Origin: an archaeon
GTDB lineage: Archaea; Methanobacteriota_B; Thermococci; Methanofastidiosales; NM3
DNA length: 64,000 nucleotides
Reading direction: 5' to 3'
Assembly: GCA_004212155.1 (NCBI GenBank)
Contig: RXIG01000001.1
Coordinates: 32,001-96,000, forward strand
This document shows positions 2,497-11,750 of the stretch, piece after piece (the stretch's first letter is position 1; every line of letters starts with the position of its first letter). A program made the translations under genes and the position numbers. The notes under the pieces are model-generated. The model ran no database searches. It had not been told where the DNA came from and saw only the letters and a list, made by a program, of their open reading frames with translations.

Positions 2497-3876
2497 ATGA
2501 GATTGGATTTAGTAGTAAAAAACGGAAAAGTGGTCACAGAATCGGATACGTTCACTGCTGACATAGGGATCAAGGGCAAGAAGATAGTGAAGATAGCACA
2601 GGAGATAGATGACGACGCAGAGGAGACGATCGATGCCAAGGGCAAGTACGTTATGCCTGGCGTCATTGACGCCCATACGCACCTTCACATGCCATTCATG
2701 GGCTCGCACTCTGTCGACAACTACAAGACAGGCACCATCGCGGCGGCATGCGGCGGCGTTACATCGGTCATTGACTACGATGTGCAACAGGAAGGCGAGA
2801 CTCTCCATGAAGCCGTTGAGCGCAAGAAAAAGACCGCGTTCGACCAGGGTGTCGCCATCGACTTCTCGCTTCACCCCGGAGTCACGCAATGGGGACAGGA
2901 GACCATCGATGAGATCCCCGACCTTATCAAGAACGGCGTTCCGTCGTTCAAGGTGTTTACCGTCTACGGCGCATGGCAGGTCAAAAACGAAACGCTGCTC
3001 AAGCTGCTCGATGTCACCAAGCGTTACGGCGGGCTCGTGAACGTCCATGCTGAAAACGACGATATCATACAGATGCTCAACAAGAAGTTCGAGGAGGAAG
3101 GCACCCTCGATCCGCTGCACCATGCGCTCTCCCACCCGCCCGAGGCGGAAAAGGAGGCCGTAGAGCGGCTCATCAATCTGACAAACTACATGGACTCGCG
3201 GCTATACATCGTACACCTCTCGTCGAAGATGGGCCTCGAGGCGATCAAGCACGCCCAGACACAGGGCACAAACATCATGTGCGAGACATGCCCGCAATAC
3301 CTGTTCCTCTCGACAGACAACTTCAAGGAACCAAACTTCGAGGGAGCGAAGTACGTTATGTCACCGCCACCACGCGAAAAGGAGGACCAGGAAGCCTTGT
3401 GGACCGGGCTCAAGTTCGGATTCGTCAAGACTATCGCCACCGACCACTGCCCCTTCAACTTCAACAAGGAAAAGCAAAACGGCAAGGACGACTACAAGAA
3501 GATACCCAACGGTGCGCCGGGCATCGAGACTTCGCTGATGCTGATGTACTCGGAAGGTGTCGCAAAGGGCAGGATAACGATCAACGACCTCGTTCGCATC
3601 ATGTGTACCAACCCCGCCAAGATATTTGGCATGCAGGACAAGGGAAGCATAGCCATAGGCAAGGATGCGGATATCGTGGTCTACGACCCCGATGCGAAGT
3701 GGACCATGTCGATCGACAAGCTCCATATGAACGTGGACTACACGCCGTATGAGGGCATGCCCATCACCGGCAAGCCAGAGGTCACCATCTCGAAGGGCCG
3801 CGTCGTCGCACGCGACGGCGAGTTCGTCGGCGACACGAAGTGGGGCGAGTTTGTCAAGCGCCACCTCGACTATTGA
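2497..3876 (+). CDS. hydA: Dihydropyrimidinase / D-hydantoinase
   Basis: PGVIDAHTH, SFKVF (carbamylated Lys), VHAEN, YIVHLS, ETCPQYL, TDHCPF, IPNGAPGIE; GGAGG SD. Confidence 0.93.
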   Translation: MRLDLVVKNGKVVTESDTFTADIGIKGKKIVKIAQEIDDDAEETIDAKGKYVMPGVIDAHTHLHMPFMGSHSVDNYKTGTIAAACGGVTSVIDYDVQQEGETLHEAVERKKKTAFDQGVAIDFSLHPGVTQWGQETIDEIPDLIKNGVPSFKVFTVYGAWQVKNETLLKLLDVTKRYGGLVNVHAENDDIIQMLNKKFEEEGTLDPLHHALSHPPEAEKEAVERLINLTNYMDSRLYIVHLSSKMGLEAIKHAQTQGTNIMCETCPQYLFLSTDNFKEPNFEGAKYVMSPPPREKEDQEALWTGLKFGFVKTIATDHCPFNFNKEKQNGKDDYKKIPNGAPGIETSLMLMYSEGVAKGRITINDLVRIMCTNPAKIFGMQDKGSIAIGKDADIVVYDPDAKWTMSIDKLHMNVDYTPYEGMPITGKPEVTISKGRVVARDGEFVGDTKWGEFVKRHLDY

Positions 3877-3960
3877 TCACCACCCCTCTTTTTCTTTTCT
3901 TATTTTCCTTGTTCATTTTTGCAAACCATTTTCTTTTCAGTCTAAACTATGCTAATTTTT

Positions 3961-3998
3961 TAAAAAATAAAAAAATAACCAAATTTTTTTATTTTTTA
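3961..3998. repeat. Perfect 16-bp A/T inverted repeat with 6-nt spacer
   Basis: TAAAAAATAAAAAAAT-aaccaa-ATTTTTTTATTTTTTA, about 25 bp upstream of a BRE/TATA. Confidence 0.8.
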
Positions 3999-4020
3999 GC
4001 AAAATAAATTAAAAATTATC

Positions 4021-4037
4021 AAGAAAAGCTTAAATAG
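4021..4037 (+). promoter_or_regulatory. BRE+TATA promoter for the small-peptide cassette
   Basis: AAGAAAAGCTTAAATAG; same pattern as other promoters here, e.g. CGAAAGGCTTAATAAG before gdh. Confidence 0.65.
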
Positions 4038-4088
4038 ACCTCATATCATATAGTGTATCAAGTCATTATCACGATGAGGTGAACAAGA

Positions 4089-4253
4089 ATGAACGCTGTG
4101 AAGAACTTCGGAAACGCCTTTGGCGGATTTGCATTTGTGAGAAAGGCCATTGGGCTGGCCAGTGAAAAGGACGAGAGGGACGAGCTTGGCAACTGCCAGG
4201 AACGCCTCGAGCCTTGCTACTGCGACAGGAACGTATTCAACGTATTGCATTAA
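4089..4253 (+). CDS. Small peptide 1, 54 aa: MNAVKNFGNAFGGFAFVRKAIGLASEKDERDELGNCQERLEPCYCDRNVFNVLH
   Basis: GAGGTGA SD 6 nt before the ATG; follows a promoter; C-terminal motif shared with the next ORF. Confidence 0.75.
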   Translation: MNAVKNFGNAFGGFAFVRKAIGLASEKDERDELGNCQERLEPCYCDRNVFNVLH

Positions 4254-4267
4254 GGAGGTACAGACAC

Positions 4268-4369
4268 ATGATACACTTTAGAAGGGACACATCACTCTCT
4301 GAGTCGGTCAACAACGACTTTGTCGACTGTTCGTTTTCCGGCCGCGCCACCTTCAACGCGGTCTTCTAG
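4268..4369 (+). CDS. Small peptide 2, 33 aa: MIHFRRDTSLSESVNNDFVDCSFSGRATFNAVF
   Basis: GGAGGT SD directly after the stop of peptide 1; C-terminus aligns without gaps to peptide 1. Confidence 0.72.
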   Translation: MIHFRRDTSLSESVNNDFVDCSFSGRATFNAVF

Positions 4370-4400
4370 ACCGGACGAAGGATTAACTGTCACCACGCAC

Positions 4401-4421
4401 GGGAGGGGGCCCTCCCCTCCC
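4401..4421 (+). other. GC-rich stem-loop (8-bp stem, 5-nt loop) between the peptides and the MFS gene
   Basis: GGGAGGGG-gccct-CCCCTCCC. Confidence 0.7.
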
Positions 4422-4446
4422 ACCATTCCCGCTACATGGTGTGTAC

Positions 4447-5706
4447 ATGGAAGAACGGAAGGTCACATTTCGCGAAGTGTTGGGGATACCATCCTTCAGG
4501 CTGCTCTGGGTGGGTCAGCTCATATCGAACTTCGGGGACCGATTCAGCTACATGGCCGTCATGGGGCTCATTCTATTCAGGTGGGAAGGCTCTGCGCTCG
4601 ACGCGGGGATGATGTTTGTCATCATGGCCCTTCCCTCGATCTTCATAGGCCCTGTTGCCGGCGTCTTCGTGGACAGGTATGACAAGAAGAAGGTCATGAT
4701 CGTTTCCGACCTTGTGCGGGCAGCCCTCATTGCGCTGCTATCGCAGGCACAGACGCTCATGCAGGTCTATGTTCTCATATTCCTCGTCGCCGTCGTATCT
4801 CGCTTCTTCTACCCTTCGCGCAGCGCTATGATACCCGCCCTCGTGGAGAAACGCCAGCTCATCGTGGCCAACTCGCTATCGCAGTCCACCTATCAGACAT
4901 CAGCCATCCTGGGGTATGCGCTTGGTGGCATGCTCGTTGCGCTCATCGGCCCTGTGGCGGTATTTTACCTTGACAGCGTCTCATTTCTCGTTTCAGCAGT
5001 GCTCATCGCCATGATATCGTACACGGCTGTCACATCCGCCGTTGCCGATATCGGCCTGTCCCCCCTCATGCGCATACGACGCGAGTTCGTCGATGGACTC
5101 GCATACGTATACAACGACAAGCGCATCCTGTTCATCACGACGCTTTTTTCCTCCGTTCTCCTCTTCTTCGGGGGGTTAAACGTCGTATGGCTCATCCTCG
5201 TGCGCGACGTGATGGGCCTCGGTGTTGAAGGCATGGGCATCGTCGAATCCGTGCTCGGCGGCGGCATGCTGGCAGGGACGTTTTTTGTGGGAATCATCGG
5301 CCAGCGCATGGGCATACGCCCGATGCTGCTTGGCGGCACCATCGTATTCTCGCTCGCGTTCTTCGCGATTGCGGCGTTCACTGTGCTCCCGAACGTCATC
5401 ATATGGCTCTTCATAGCCGGCATCTCCAACGAGGTCATCGTGGTGCCATGCATCACGCTGCTACAGGAGATCACGCCCGAGCATATGCTTGGTCGCGTAT
5501 TCAGTGCCTTTGGAACGGCGCTTGAATCAGCAAGCCTTATCTCCATGGGCGTTCTTGGATACCTTGCGAGCACTGTCCCCGTACACTCTTTGCTCTTTGC
5601 CATGTCGGCCTGTATCCTCATGGTCGTCCTTGTTGCCTCGCTTGTCCCCGTCTCGCTCGAACGGGTGCCCCTGGAAGATGCCGCTCCTGCGCCGGCGACG
5701 GGGTAG
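4447..5706 (+). CDS. MFS transporter, DHA3/macrolide-efflux (MFS_3)-like, about 12 TM
   Basis: FRLLWVGQLISNFGD, motif A GVFVDRYDKKKVMIVSDLVR, LLQEITPEHMLGRVFS; alternative GTG start at 4441. Confidence 0.9.
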   Translation: MEERKVTFREVLGIPSFRLLWVGQLISNFGDRFSYMAVMGLILFRWEGSALDAGMMFVIMALPSIFIGPVAGVFVDRYDKKKVMIVSDLVRAALIALLSQAQTLMQVYVLIFLVAVVSRFFYPSRSAMIPALVEKRQLIVANSLSQSTYQTSAILGYALGGMLVALIGPVAVFYLDSVSFLVSAVLIAMISYTAVTSAVADIGLSPLMRIRREFVDGLAYVYNDKRILFITTLFSSVLLFFGGLNVVWLILVRDVMGLGVEGMGIVESVLGGGMLAGTFFVGIIGQRMGIRPMLLGGTIVFSLAFFAIAAFTVLPNVIIWLFIAGISNEVIVVPCITLLQEITPEHMLGRVFSAFGTALESASLISMGVLGYLASTVPVHSLLFAMSACILMVVLVASLVPVSLERVPLEDAAPAPATG

Positions 5707-5738
5707 CTTTAATAAGAATTGCTGCTAAGAGGACCTAT

Positions 5739-6759: not shown

Positions 6760-7344
6760 ATGAATAACGAAGGAGTTAAGTCTGGAGACTTCGTGATCCC
6801 GGGCGATGTGTTGGGAGTTGGCGAGGAGTTCATGCCCGGCATAGGTGCGTATGAGGAGGATGGAATCATCTACTCGTCGGTCGCGGGCATCGTTGATCTG
6901 GACATGCAGAAGAGAAAGGCCTCGGTCGAGGCACGAACAGACCTTCCCCCCGTACCGAGGGAGGGCGATGCAGTGATATGCGAGGTCGTTGACCTTCGCT
7001 CACAGATGGCGATGGTCGAGTTGCTCGCAAAGAGCGGCCAGTTGGATCGCGCGCTTTCTATCCCTACGAAGGGACGTGTCTACATATCTCAGTCGAGCAA
7101 GCGCTACGTGACGAATCTGCAAAACGAGTTCCGCATCGGCGACATCATACGAGCACGCGTACGCGATACCCGGAAATACCCTGTGGAGCTCTCGACAGTG
7201 GATGCCGATCTTGGAGTCATACTGGGCCTCTGCACGAAATGCAGGCACGTTCTCAAGAAGAAGGGATCCAAGCTTACCTGTCCGAACTGCGGTAGCGTTG
7301 AGACGCGCAAGATGGCCTCAGACTACGGAGAAGGGTCAATTTAG
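6760..7344 (+). CDS. csl4: Exosome subunit Csl4
   Basis: VIPGDVLGVGEEFMPG, S1 domain, C-terminal CTKC...CPNCG..ETRK zinc ribbon. Confidence 0.93.
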   Translation: MNNEGVKSGDFVIPGDVLGVGEEFMPGIGAYEEDGIIYSSVAGIVDLDMQKRKASVEARTDLPPVPREGDAVICEVVDLRSQMAMVELLAKSGQLDRALSIPTKGRVYISQSSKRYVTNLQNEFRIGDIIRARVRDTRKYPVELSTVDADLGVILGLCTKCRHVLKKKGSKLTCPNCGSVETRKMASDYGEGSI

Positions 7345-9824: not shown

Positions 9825-11750
9825 TTGTCTTCAGAAGAAATTTTAAAAAGTATTGAAAAGGTGGTCAATGAAACGATCCCTTCAGGTGCTACCATTACTC
9901 ACATCGACTTCGAGGGTCCCGAAGTAGTCATATACACTCGCAATCCTTCACTACTCGTTAGTGACGCGGATCTGATAAAGGATCTTGCCAAGAAGTTGCG
10001 CAAGCGTGTTGTCATTCGGCCCGACTCATCGATCATCATGCCTGAAGAGAAGGCAATAGAGAAAATCAAGGAACTCGTACCAAAGGAAGCGGAGATAACT
10101 GATATCACATTCGACCCGGGGATCTCGGAGGTCATCATAGAGGCAAAGAAGCCCGGGCTTGCGATTGGGAAGTCGGGGAGCACGCTGCGTGAGATCACAA
10201 AGAACGTCCGATGGGCGCCACGTATCGTCCGCACGCCGCCGATGTCGTCCACAACGGTCCAGGCCATACGTTCCACGCTCCACAGGGAGCACAATGAACG
10301 CAAACGCATCATGCGTGCGGTCGGACACAAGATCTATCGTGACGAGAACATACGTTCCGACTGGATCCGCATCACATCGCTTGGCGGATTCCGCGAGGTG
10401 GGGCGGTCCTGCCTGCTTCTTCAGACCAATGAGAGCAACATTATGCTCGACTGTGGCGTCAACATCGCCTCGGATGATCCCGCAAAGGCGTATCCCTTCC
10501 TCAGCGCTCCTGAGTTCAAGTATATCCTCTCCTCAAACGAGCTCGATGCGATCATCATAACTCACGCACACCTTGACCACTCGGGGTTCGTGCCCTATCT
10601 CTTCAAGTCACTTTATGATGGTCCCGTCTACTGCACGCCAGCGACACGTGACCTGATGATGCTTTTGCAAAAGGATTTCGTCGAGATCGCAAAACGAGAG
10701 GGAAAGCCTTGTCCCTACGGCATGAAGGAGATCAAGGATACGATCACACATACGATACCGCTTGATTACAAGGAAGTGCGCGATATCGCCCCCGATGTGC
10801 GCCTTACATTGCACAATGCGGGACACATACTCGGTTCTTCGATTGTGCATTTGCATGTGGGCAACGGTCTTCACAATGTCGCATATACGGGCGACCTCAA
10901 GTTCTCGAAGACACGCCTTCTCGAACCGGCAAACGTGCGATTCCCACGGCTTGAGACACTCATCCTTGAGAGCACGTATGGGGGTTCGAAAAACATCCAA
11001 CCTACCCGTGAGGATGCTGAACGCGACCTTCTAAAGACGATACGGCGCACCATAGAGCGAAAGGGAAAGGTACTCATACCTGTGCTCGCAGTGGGTCGTG
11101 CGCAGGAGCTCATGCTCGTGCTCGAGGAGGCCATGCGCCACAAAAAGCTCCCAGAGGTGCCCATCTACCTTGACGGCATGATATGGGAGGCAACGGCCAT
11201 CCACACTGCATATCCCGAGTATCTCTCAAAATCCGTTCGAGACCAGATATTCCATCAGGAACACAACCCCTTCCTCTCCAAGGTGTTTGACAGCGTGCCA
11301 AACTCTAACAGGAGGAAAGAGATTATGGAGGGCGACCCTGCCATCATCCTTGCAACGTCTGGCATGCTCGTCGGTGGTTCGTCGGTCGAATACTTCAAGA
11401 ACTTCGCTCCCGACAAGCGAAATAGCATCATTTTCGTGAGTTACCAGGCCGAGGGTTCGATGGGTTCGCGCGTCCAGAAAGGCTGGAACGAGGTCACCAT
11501 GAAGAACGAACTCGGGAGGACCGAGGCGATCAACATCAACATGGAGATTCGGACCATAGAAGGATTTTCGGGCCATTCGGACCGCAATCAGCTCATCAAC
11601 TTCGTGCGCAAGGTAAGCAATGGCACAGAAAAGGTGTTTACCAACCATGGCGAGAGCGGAAAATGCATAGACCTTGCATCATCGATCTACAAGATGTTCA
11701 AGGTCGAGACGCGGTCACCACTCAACCTTGAGACGATGCGCGTCTATTAG
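9825..11750 (+). CDS. fttA: aCPSF1/FttA KH-domain beta-CASP ribonuclease, transcription termination factor (TTG start)
   Basis: FEGPEVVIY, KH GLAIGKSG, LGGFREVGRSC, THAHLDH, AGHILGS, FSGHSD; GGTGA SD. Confidence 0.95.
   Translation: MSSEEILKSIEKVVNETIPSGATITHIDFEGPEVVIYTRNPSLLVSDADLIKDLAKKLRKRVVIRPDSSIIMPEEKAIEKIKELVPKEAEITDITFDPGISEVIIEAKKPGLAIGKSGSTLREITKNVRWAPRIVRTPPMSSTTVQAIRSTLHREHNERKRIMRAVGHKIYRDENIRSDWIRITSLGGFREVGRSCLLLQTNESNIMLDCGVNIASDDPAKAYPFLSAPEFKYILSSNELDAIIITHAHLDHSGFVPYLFKSLYDGPVYCTPATRDLMMLLQKDFVEIAKREGKPCPYGMKEIKDTITHTIPLDYKEVRDIAPDVRLTLHNAGHILGSSIVHLHVGNGLHNVAYTGDLKFSKTRLLEPANVRFPRLETLILESTYGGSKNIQPTREDAERDLLKTIRRTIERKGKVLIPVLAVGRAQELMLVLEEAMRHKKLPEVPIYLDGMIWEATAIHTAYPEYLSKSVRDQIFHQEHNPFLSKVFDSVPNSNRRKEIMEGDPAIILATSGMLVGGSSVEYFKNFAPDKRNSIIFVSYQAEGSMGSRVQKGWNEVTMKNELGRTEAININMEIRTIEGFSGHSDRNQLINFVRKVSNGTEKVFTNHGESGKCIDLASSIYKMFKVETRSPLNLETMRVY

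Follow-up and report, generated by a model that had tools for sequence, protein, structure and literature searches.

Two small open reading frames (ORFs), P1 and P2, lie in tandem upstream of a transporter gene in the 64,000-nucleotide (nt) stretch of archaeal DNA analysed here, hereafter the window (contig RXIG01000001.1; Table 1). The window comes from a 1.49-Mb genome (G000) in which mcrA is present, and it was compared with six further genomes of the same taxonomic family (G001 to G006; G001 is congeneric with G000, and G004 and G005 each belong to another genus) and with 27 outgroup genomes from the other three families of the order. These are metagenome-assembled genomes of 77-96% completeness, for which "not found" is not equivalent to absence. 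That two ORFs with Shine-Dalgarno (SD) sequences stand in tandem at this site had been proposed from the letters of the window alone (the sequence-only reading), and the sequence bears it out; the P2 start is the ATG at 4268, inside a longer listed frame (4214-4369). A GAGGTG-like SD occupies the same position as that of P1 in eight of 10 aligned peptide loci, in four genomes (G000, G001, G004, and G005) the SD of P2 adjoins the P1 stop codon or overlaps it, and P2 appears to be translationally coupled to P1.

Table 1. Features of the P1-P2 locus, numbered from the first nucleotide of the window
Feature	Position	Strand	Remarks
AT-rich block TAATTTTTTAAAAAAyAAgAAAATAA with T6A6 palindrome	3953..3978	+	conserved in 10 of 10 aligned loci
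Putative 26-nt promoter block AAAAATTATCAAGAAAAGCTTAAATA	4011..4036	+	BRE-like purine run 4022-4029; TATA box TTAAATA 4030-4036
SD GAGGTGA of P1	4076..4082	+	6 nt ahead of P1 ATG
P1, 54-aa small protein	4089..4253	+	open frame; N-terminal aromatic/basic segment, variable linker, C-terminus ...ERLEPCYCDRNVFNVLH
SD GGAGGT of P2	4254..4259	+	abuts P1 stop codon; 8 nt ahead of P2 ATG
P2, 33-aa small protein with the family C-terminal motif only (...GRATFNAVF)	4268..4369	+	open frame
GC-rich 8-bp hairpin (GGGAGGGG / CCCCTCCC)	4401..4421	+	between P2 and the transporter gene; in centroid fold of G000 and G001
DHA3-type MFS transporter gene	4441..5706	+	Pfam MFS_1 5.5e-43, MFS_3 1.8e-24; NCBIfam TIGR00900 1.9e-67, below its cut-off

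The C-terminal 12-residue match described in the sequence-only reading also stood: CYCDRNVFNVLH (P1) and SFSGRATFNAVF (P2) align without gaps up to the stop codon, with three identities (R, F, and N) plus conservative pairs, and the aligned arginine is encoded by AGG in P1 and by CGC in P2. Of the 85,508 stop-to-stop frames of G000, 12 carry the loose tail motif R..[FLIVM]N.[LIVMF].$, and three of those 12 are P1, P2, and a third family copy, P3, on contig C23. Ranked against the P1 tail by ungapped BLOSUM62 score, the P2 tail came 27th of 38,909 tails, a modest result on its own, though P2 is the immediately neighbouring ORF. It is the relatives that supply the decisive evidence against a chance resemblance.

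P3 encodes 55 amino acids (aa), with the tail ...CCERFTLNTLL and the same SD spacing as P1; the coding DNA of the two has diverged, and their proteins are 24% identical. The P3-type position is between a divergent 160-aa ArsR-type winged helix-turn-helix (wHTH) gene (PF01022, HTH_5, E 3.3e-7) and a gene of ~400 aa encoding a Toastrack/DUF4097 protein (PF13349, E 2.5e-19). A two-sequence profile gave convincing matches in five of the six other family genomes and noise only (E > 0.02) in 34 more distant genomes; a profile built from 11 sequences detected the peptide family in all seven genomes of the taxonomic family and in none of the 27 outgroup genomes. Among 1.84 billion cluster representatives, four matches were obtained at E <= 1e-3, and 14 among 5.8 billion proteins, all of them 53-65 aa long and all unnamed or "hypothetical", one being labelled by its source as "Candidatus Methanofastidiosia archaeon"; no longer or fused forms of the family were found. 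On that label and general taxonomy, the order is probably Methanofastidiosales and the class-level relatives are probably Thermococci. Public contig scans added one locus from genome contigs and two from metagenome contigs. The two genes had been called unannotated, which holds in part only: P1-type proteins are already public under such entries.

When P1, P2, and P3 were compared with Pfam, nothing was returned but one chance-level match (DUF3452, E 0.13); NCBIfam and PADLOC gave no match, nor did a profile search of the PDB at E <= 1. The ESM Atlas holds the P1 sequence, with no usable look-alike and no model. Published work on Toastrack/DUF4097, Methanofastidiosa small proteins, the TIP/PIP motif, and archaeal arrest peptides, available mostly as abstracts, contained no description of the peptide family. 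As judged from these searches, the family is an orphan, restricted to one family of mcrA-bearing archaea.

P1-type genes occur in six of the seven family genomes, with a coupled second ORF in four and one probable remnant of such an ORF in G002. The G001 orthologue of P2 differs from that of G000 by two amino acid changes. In G004, a P1-like gene is followed by a 31-aa ORF (ending ...ARATFSMVL) whose SD overlaps the P1 stop and which is 35% identical to P2, with RATF conserved; a P2 profile recovered G000, G001, and G004 at E <= 1e-18, while in the remaining four family genomes no match fell below E 0.24. On the minus strand of G005 contig C161 stands a 56-aa P1-like gene (tail HERDTFMVMY), coupled to a 35-aa GTG-start ORF (...APFTSALL), with the gene for a DHA3 transporter of the major facilitator superfamily (MFS) ~35 nt further on. 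This P1-like gene was missed by the family profile at E <= 0.01 and was found by reading upstream of the orthologous MFS gene. Here, a second genus shows the P1-P2-MFS operon. The G002 remnant, on contig C47, is a 23-aa ORF (1677-1748 of the extracted locus) that follows a single P1-like gene, begins in the P2 start context GACACATG, and retains a GRAF remnant in its ...NNGRAFR end; P2 has probably decayed here. The G006 contig stops within the P1-like gene. When the P2 profile was set against the family profile, only the last nine columns aligned (E 0.0083, probability 4.8%). P2-type genes are truncated paralogs that retain the tail only, conserved in two genera and with a looser analogue in a third.

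Reading frame and selection were analysed in 12 gene copies, drawn from the seven genomes and one metagenome contig. The + frame is the only one free of stops in all 12 copies, every other frame being interrupted in some. Over non-redundant pairs, the last nine codons gave proportions of synonymous and nonsynonymous differences (pS and pN) of 0.83 and 0.235, a ratio of 0.28, as against a pN/pS of 0.92 for the linker (codons -30 to -18). Between G000 and G001, the pN/pS values, which rest on small counts, were 0.039/0.123 for P1, 0.026/0.185 for P2, and 0.008/0.085 for P3, and all five P1 replacements fall in the linker. These comparisons agree with the earlier proposal of selection on the peptide, and indicate that it acts chiefly on the tail and the N-terminal segment. 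Nothing that the sequence-only reading had named as refuting it turned up: the frames are intact in relatives, and the motif was found elsewhere, both in P3 and in other genera. On these comparative grounds, P1 and P2 are real genes and not chance ORFs.

Full-length members measure 48-59 aa from the first ATG and up to 65 aa as called in databases. Their N-terminal segment is aromatic/basic (F..VFSFVRK-like) and predicted to be helical; the linker varies in length, sequence, and charge, and the net charge of the whole peptide ranges from -1 to +9. The tail, R-x-E-x(4)-[DE][RK]x[TV][FL]Nx[LIV]-hydrophobic-COOH, ends exactly at the free carboxyl terminus, and in the 20-member alignment used for motif and residue counts only R/K, T/V, F/L, and N are near-invariant. 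The looser upstream pattern that P1 and P2 had been said to share (F.R...L.SE....D...C) did not survive, as it needs a one-residue shift to fit both and is not common to the orthologous pairs of G004 or G005.

The P1-types of G004, G005, and G006 lack cysteine, as do two further aligned members (P0006 and P0008). Toastrack-linked (P3-type) members always carry one or two cysteines (CC, YC, or C-x6-C), whereas several P1- and P2-types have none. Regulators of the ArsR family are known as sensors of metals or redox state. With cysteines in P3-types beside an ArsR-family gene, a thiol-based role specific to the P3 subclass is conceivable.

No signal peptide was seen and no transmembrane segment, the maximum 19-residue Kyte-Doolittle window being < 1.0. 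AlphaFold2, run on the 20-row alignment, gave a low-confidence model (predicted local distance difference test score 55) with a single helix spanning residues 7-26 and coil for the rest. Together, this model and the absent transmembrane segment would fit a disordered protein with linear motifs. We also considered whether the tail is a copied rung of the Toastrack beta-helix, which it resembles by eye (repeats E-x-G-[NS]-I-x-[IL]); the profile-profile probability was 0.1%, and the idea was dropped as unsupported.

A promoter of its own had been assigned to each ORF, each with a B recognition element (BRE) and TATA box. This is not so: a single BRE/TATA (4022-4036) serves both, and P2 has no promoter of its own because only 14 nt separate it from P1. 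The common upstream promoter-like region is AAAGCTTAAATA, ending at 4036. In a DNA search of G000, the 84-nt upstream region of P1 was 85% identical to that of P3, and the 26-nt block listed in Table 1 has exactly two identical copies in this genome, one ahead of P1 and one ahead of P3. All eight zero-mismatch matches to its 16-nt core (AAGAAAARCTTAAATA) in the seven family genomes precede family peptide genes. The archaeal BRE/TATA consensus is well established, and from it we infer that the 4011-4036 block is a promoter. Ten peptide loci could be aligned over ~130 nt before the ATG, with three conserved blocks in common (TAATTTtTTAAaAAAyAAgAAAATA, TTTTTtAgyAAAATTAA, and AAGAAAAaCTTAAATA); the AT-rich block at 3953-3978 is probably where a regulator binds the peptide promoter. 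A scan for sigma-70 promoters and terminators returned chance-level matches only. A one-mismatch version of the core (AAGAAATGCTTAAATA) lies elsewhere in G000 (contig C22, 65856-65871), ~25 nt ahead of the ATG of an unrelated hydrophobic ORF, and is probably an ordinary leaderless promoter outside the regulon.

Six of the seven family genomes show the order wHTH-peptide-Toastrack; the G003 contig breaks off immediately before the peptide gene, so that peptide and Toastrack only are visible. The regulator gave an NCBIfam SdpR-family match (E 1.5e-4) below the cut-off, no SHOCT-like module was found in its tail, and no PspC, LiaI-LiaF-TM, or PspA gene was present in the inspected loci of ~3 kb. 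Between the P3 stop and the Toastrack start, ~40-50 nt ahead of the start codon, an (A/G)ATTAAT(A/G) element is conserved, which may be the TATA box of the Toastrack gene itself; with such an element between the two genes, P3 need not be a mere leader.

Toastrack orthologues occur in two other families of the order, and at four outgroup loci they are paired with a wHTH gene of the same type, across a gap of 155-225 nt that holds no family peptide. The outgroup Toastrack promoter, AAAAAAGCTTATAAAT (likewise given as AAAAGCTTAWAAAT), is similar to the peptide promoter. Upstream of promoters of the AAAAAAGCTTATAAAT type, the outgroup wHTH/Toastrack intergenic regions contain near-perfect palindromes (CGGTTTCGCGAAACCG and CGTTTTCGCGAAAACG), which probably serve as operators for the ArsR-type regulator; the peptide-bearing family has GTTTTGAAAAAAC at the equivalent site, beside the regulator's own TATATATA box. 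The simplest history would have the peptide gene arise or be inserted, in the family's ancestor, downstream of the regulated promoter and ahead of the Toastrack gene. Later, it would have been duplicated with its promoter to a second site, where a partial tandem duplication would have given rise to P2.

At that second site, the downstream gene varies. Orthologues of the DHA3 MFS gene follow P1-type genes in G000, G002, and G005, and never P3. The 71-77 nt between P2 and the MFS gene of G000 contain no AT-rich promoter-like stretch, and because of this the MFS gene is probably co-transcribed with P1-P2. In G001, the MFS gene is absent from the P1-P2 site: window positions 4422-5738 have no counterpart on G001 contig C175, identity between the two genomes is lost just 3' of the hairpin behind P2, and the diphthamide gene Dph2 follows in both. 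The presence of the MFS gene in G000 and its absence from G001 is a clean indel of one gene. The hairpin itself, which may act in 3'-end formation, stability, or attenuation, had z-scores of -0.73 (G000) and -1.95 (G001); G004 has an 11-bp hairpin of unrelated sequence 3' of P2 (z -3.73). Dph2 directly follows P1-P2 in G001 and G004. We considered a functional association between P1-P2 and Dph2, as Dph2 lies 3' of the pair in G000, G001, and G004. In G002, however, what comes after the MFS gene is an NrdD-like gene, and we treat the arrangement as inherited synteny.

We favour the reading, to which we would give an even chance, that these are trans-acting small proteins, the regulated output of the wHTH-Toastrack module, that dock by their free C-terminal motif. 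P1 and P2 would be translationally coupled small proteins, cytoplasmic or membrane-peripheral. The founding P3-type copy would have been inserted between the regulated promoter and the Toastrack/DUF4097 coding sequence, and the promoter and the AT-rich block upstream of it would then have been copied to the P1-P2(-MFS) locus. Because promoter and block would have travelled with the peptide gene, all family genes would form one small regulon, most likely under the ArsR-type regulator. The C-terminal motif would dock onto a partner, which might be (i) the Toastrack platform, (ii) the regulator, or (iii) the MFS transporter, while the N-terminal segment would give membrane proximity, and the peptides would modulate or report the output of a putative envelope-stress module.

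The analysis establishes a selected, lineage-specific family of small proteins, a dedicated promoter shared by its genes, and a constant association of the P3-type copy with a wHTH-Toastrack pair. The trans-acting reading is favoured because of a published proposal that Toastrack forms a docking platform beneath the membrane and is coupled to wHTH regulators: in the accessible part of PMC11237479, neighbourhoods of Toastrack (DUF4097/LiaG/LiaF-type) and wHTH genes are treated as signalling systems partnered with the phage shock protein (PSP) response, and the platform as feeding transcriptional output. Like the systems described in that part of the report, the present loci join a Toastrack gene to a winged-helix regulator (in six of seven family genomes and at four outgroup loci). 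Unlike them, they include a small-protein gene, of which that part describes none; the regulator is of the ArsR type, not PadR, GntR, or two-component; and the peptide is confined to one archaeal family. The earlier suggestion of paralogous regulatory microproteins is borne out to the extent that the genes are paralogous, are under coding selection, and share a dedicated promoter.

Two sets of bacterial systems offer partial parallels. In the SdpC-SdpI-SdpR circuit of Bacillus subtilis, the activity of an ArsR-family autorepressor depends on a peptide acting with a partner close to the membrane, and we take this circuit as a working analogy for the interplay of peptide, Toastrack, and wHTH regulator. 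The peptide SdpC undergoes secretion and processing, and SdpI spans the membrane several times; neither a secreted or processed peptide nor a polytopic partner is seen here, and the peptides are not homologous. AcrZ, MgtS, and SgrT are bacterial proteins of ~30-50 aa encoded near, or co-regulated with, the transporter that they bind, AcrZ and MgtS being single-pass membrane proteins. Unlike AcrZ and MgtS, the present family has no transmembrane segment, and its universal copy, P3, is not beside a transporter.

Several points weigh against the trans-acting reading. A P1-type gene stands directly ahead of the MFS gene, and is probably co-transcribed with it, in three genomes (G000, G002, and G005), and the conserved part of the peptide stops exactly at the stop codon, as that of a cis-acting leader or arrest peptide would. 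The predicted membrane-proximal N-terminus is drawn from composition only, the helical hydrophobic moments being modest (0.43-0.67), and the proposed link between regulator and promoter from position only. The binding partner of the tail is putative, as are C-terminal binding and the stress role. Lastly, the Toastrack N-terminus gave a sub-threshold SHOCT match (E 0.0047, 17 bits vs a cut-off of 27).

Should the trans-acting reading hold, the family would be a new, very small component of the poorly understood Toastrack-wHTH modules, which are thought to sense envelope stress. Archaeal small proteins are largely uncharted, and P1-P3 form a clean, computationally well-supported case: a family-restricted gene apparently born between a regulated promoter and the original Toastrack gene, duplicated with that promoter, and then partly duplicated in tandem. 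The C-terminal motif is short and sharply defined, and could be synthesized and used as bait. The hosts are uncultured archaea of the methane cycle, and practical impact is limited pending heterologous tests.

The ORFs might instead act in cis, as arrest or "monitoring" peptides whose C-terminal residues stall the ribosome in the exit tunnel at or near termination and so control P2 reinitiation and MFS or Toastrack expression. The N-terminal aromatic/basic segment could then be the sensor, by analogy with membrane engagement in SecM- and MifM-type peptides. We regard this as the main alternative, a tentative one on the unlikely side. It would account for conservation that is of amino acids, not nucleotides, that is concentrated in the last 9-17 codons, and that ends at the stop, with all three stop codons in use. 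It would also suit a P2 that has only the tail in common with the family and likewise terminates with it, the P2 SD set against the P1 stop in four genomes, and, in G000 and G005, the placing of P1-P2 35-77 nt ahead of the MFS gene, where nothing promoter-like intervenes. The P3-type gene, for its part, would have arisen downstream of the ancestral Toastrack promoter, in what was formerly a 5' leader.

A possible RNA component of such control is equivocal. In the minimum free energy fold of G000 (246 nt, z -2.26), P2 codons ~20-26 (window 4320-4345) pair with the first MFS codons (4445-4465), but this long-range pairing is not conserved, with a 7-bp analogue in G005 and none in G002. Other observations are less easily reconciled with cis action. 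The downstream genes differ (Toastrack, MFS, Dph2, or NrdD), and P1-P2 is intact in G001 and G004, where it is followed not by a transporter but by a hairpin and then an unrelated gene. Between P3 and the Toastrack gene stands the conserved TATA-like element. The N-terminal segment is conserved across paralogs too, and strong SDs and a dedicated promoter fit a protein that is made.

TnaC is a ribosome arrest peptide acting at termination, and PepNL (PMC11890864) is another. Like them, the present ORFs are short, have conserved residues up to the stop, and may precede a regulated gene. In sequence, the present peptides are not like either, their N-terminus is conserved as well, and some copies have no regulated gene downstream. 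No archaeal arrest peptide surfaced in a limited search of the literature at the level of abstracts. A more specific form of this alternative, which we consider less likely again, is that the family is a first archaeal arrest or "monitoring" set, in which the tail [DE][RK]xT[FL]Nx[LIV]-hydrophobic-stop blocks termination, membrane engagement by the N-terminus relieves the block, and the ribosome thereby sets P2 reinitiation and MFS/Toastrack expression. Such a set would be a translation-level sensor of membrane status, born de novo in the 5' leader of the Toastrack gene, and action of the tail in the ribosome tunnel would make nascent-chain regulation a subject for study in archaea.

It is improbable that the products are exported and possibly modified peptides, be they ribosomally synthesized and post-translationally modified peptides (RiPPs), signalling peptides, or an archaeocin-like pair, with the MFS protein as exporter or immunity pump. 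The thought is prompted by two coupled small peptides that adjoin an efflux-type DHA3 MFS gene in three genomes, by the cysteine pairs of Toastrack-linked members, and by the narrow distribution and fast evolution of the family. Cysteine is missing from several members, however, and no signal peptide, transmembrane segment, or double-glycine-type site is visible in the alignment. No radical-SAM, YcaO, or lanthipeptide-type enzyme, leader peptidase, or ABC/peptidase exporter was present in the inspected neighbourhoods (within ~8 kb in the window). As to a dedicated exporter, the picture is mixed, the MFS gene following a P1-type gene in G000, G002, and G005 and being absent after P1-P2 in G001 and G004. 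P3, the copy found throughout the family, has a transcription factor and a cytoplasmic-type Toastrack protein as its fixed associates, and no transporter. That the usual cargo of MFS pumps is small molecules, not peptides of 50 aa, we also count against export.

The sequence-only reading had leaned toward a RiPP or signalling precursor of leader-plus-core design. We found neither a maturation enzyme beside the inspected loci nor conservation of the cysteine and serine positions that it had stressed, and the layout, in which the extreme C-terminus is conserved and the remainder varies, is unlike the usual pattern of conserved leader and variable core. PqqA and MftA, very short RiPP cofactor precursors with invariant residues at the extreme C-terminus, are like the present peptides in both respects. 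To our knowledge, they are always clustered with a radical-SAM maturase; no such maturase is beside the peptide loci, where the nearby Dph2 (G000, G001, and G004) is a housekeeping diphthamide enzyme, with NrdD in its place in G002.

A tail that is a degenerate PCNA-interacting (PIP-like) motif, or that binds some other hub, with the peptides as small inhibitors or adaptors of a housekeeping machine, is hardly to be credited. The hydrophobic spacing of the C-terminal [RK]xT[FL]Nx[LIV]-hydrophobic does resemble that of the PIP motif, QxxhxxAA, and lineage-restricted small binders of PCNA (proliferating cell nuclear antigen) have a precedent in the 64-aa TIP of Thermococcales (PMC4929162, in its accessible part). 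Against this, glutamine is at position 1 in none of the 20 aligned members, most members lack the aromatic pair, with L/I/V and then L/H/F/Y/M at positions 7-8, and the conserved T and N fall on "x" positions; moreover, the genomic context is unrelated to replication, and the tail has no sequence relation to solved structures. The notion that the frames are open by chance, in a region of regulatory or non-coding RNA, draws on the shortness of the ORFs, their lack of a Pfam or NCBIfam match, and the low-confidence structure prediction; it is excluded by the 12-copy test of frame and selection, with its contrast between tail and linker, and is further opposed by the conserved SDs and the lack of any Rfam match at E <= 1 across window positions 3500-5000.

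Across the loci, the neighbouring genes encode an amidohydrolase, MFS, Dph2, Csl4, wHTH, Toastrack, a PEP-synthase-like protein, and an NrdD-like protein. Further along the window are two ordinary housekeeping neighbours, the gene for the Csl4 exosome subunit (6760-7344) and that for an FttA/aCPSF1-type transcription termination factor (9825-11750; KH_TffA, Beta-Casp, and RMMBL domains).

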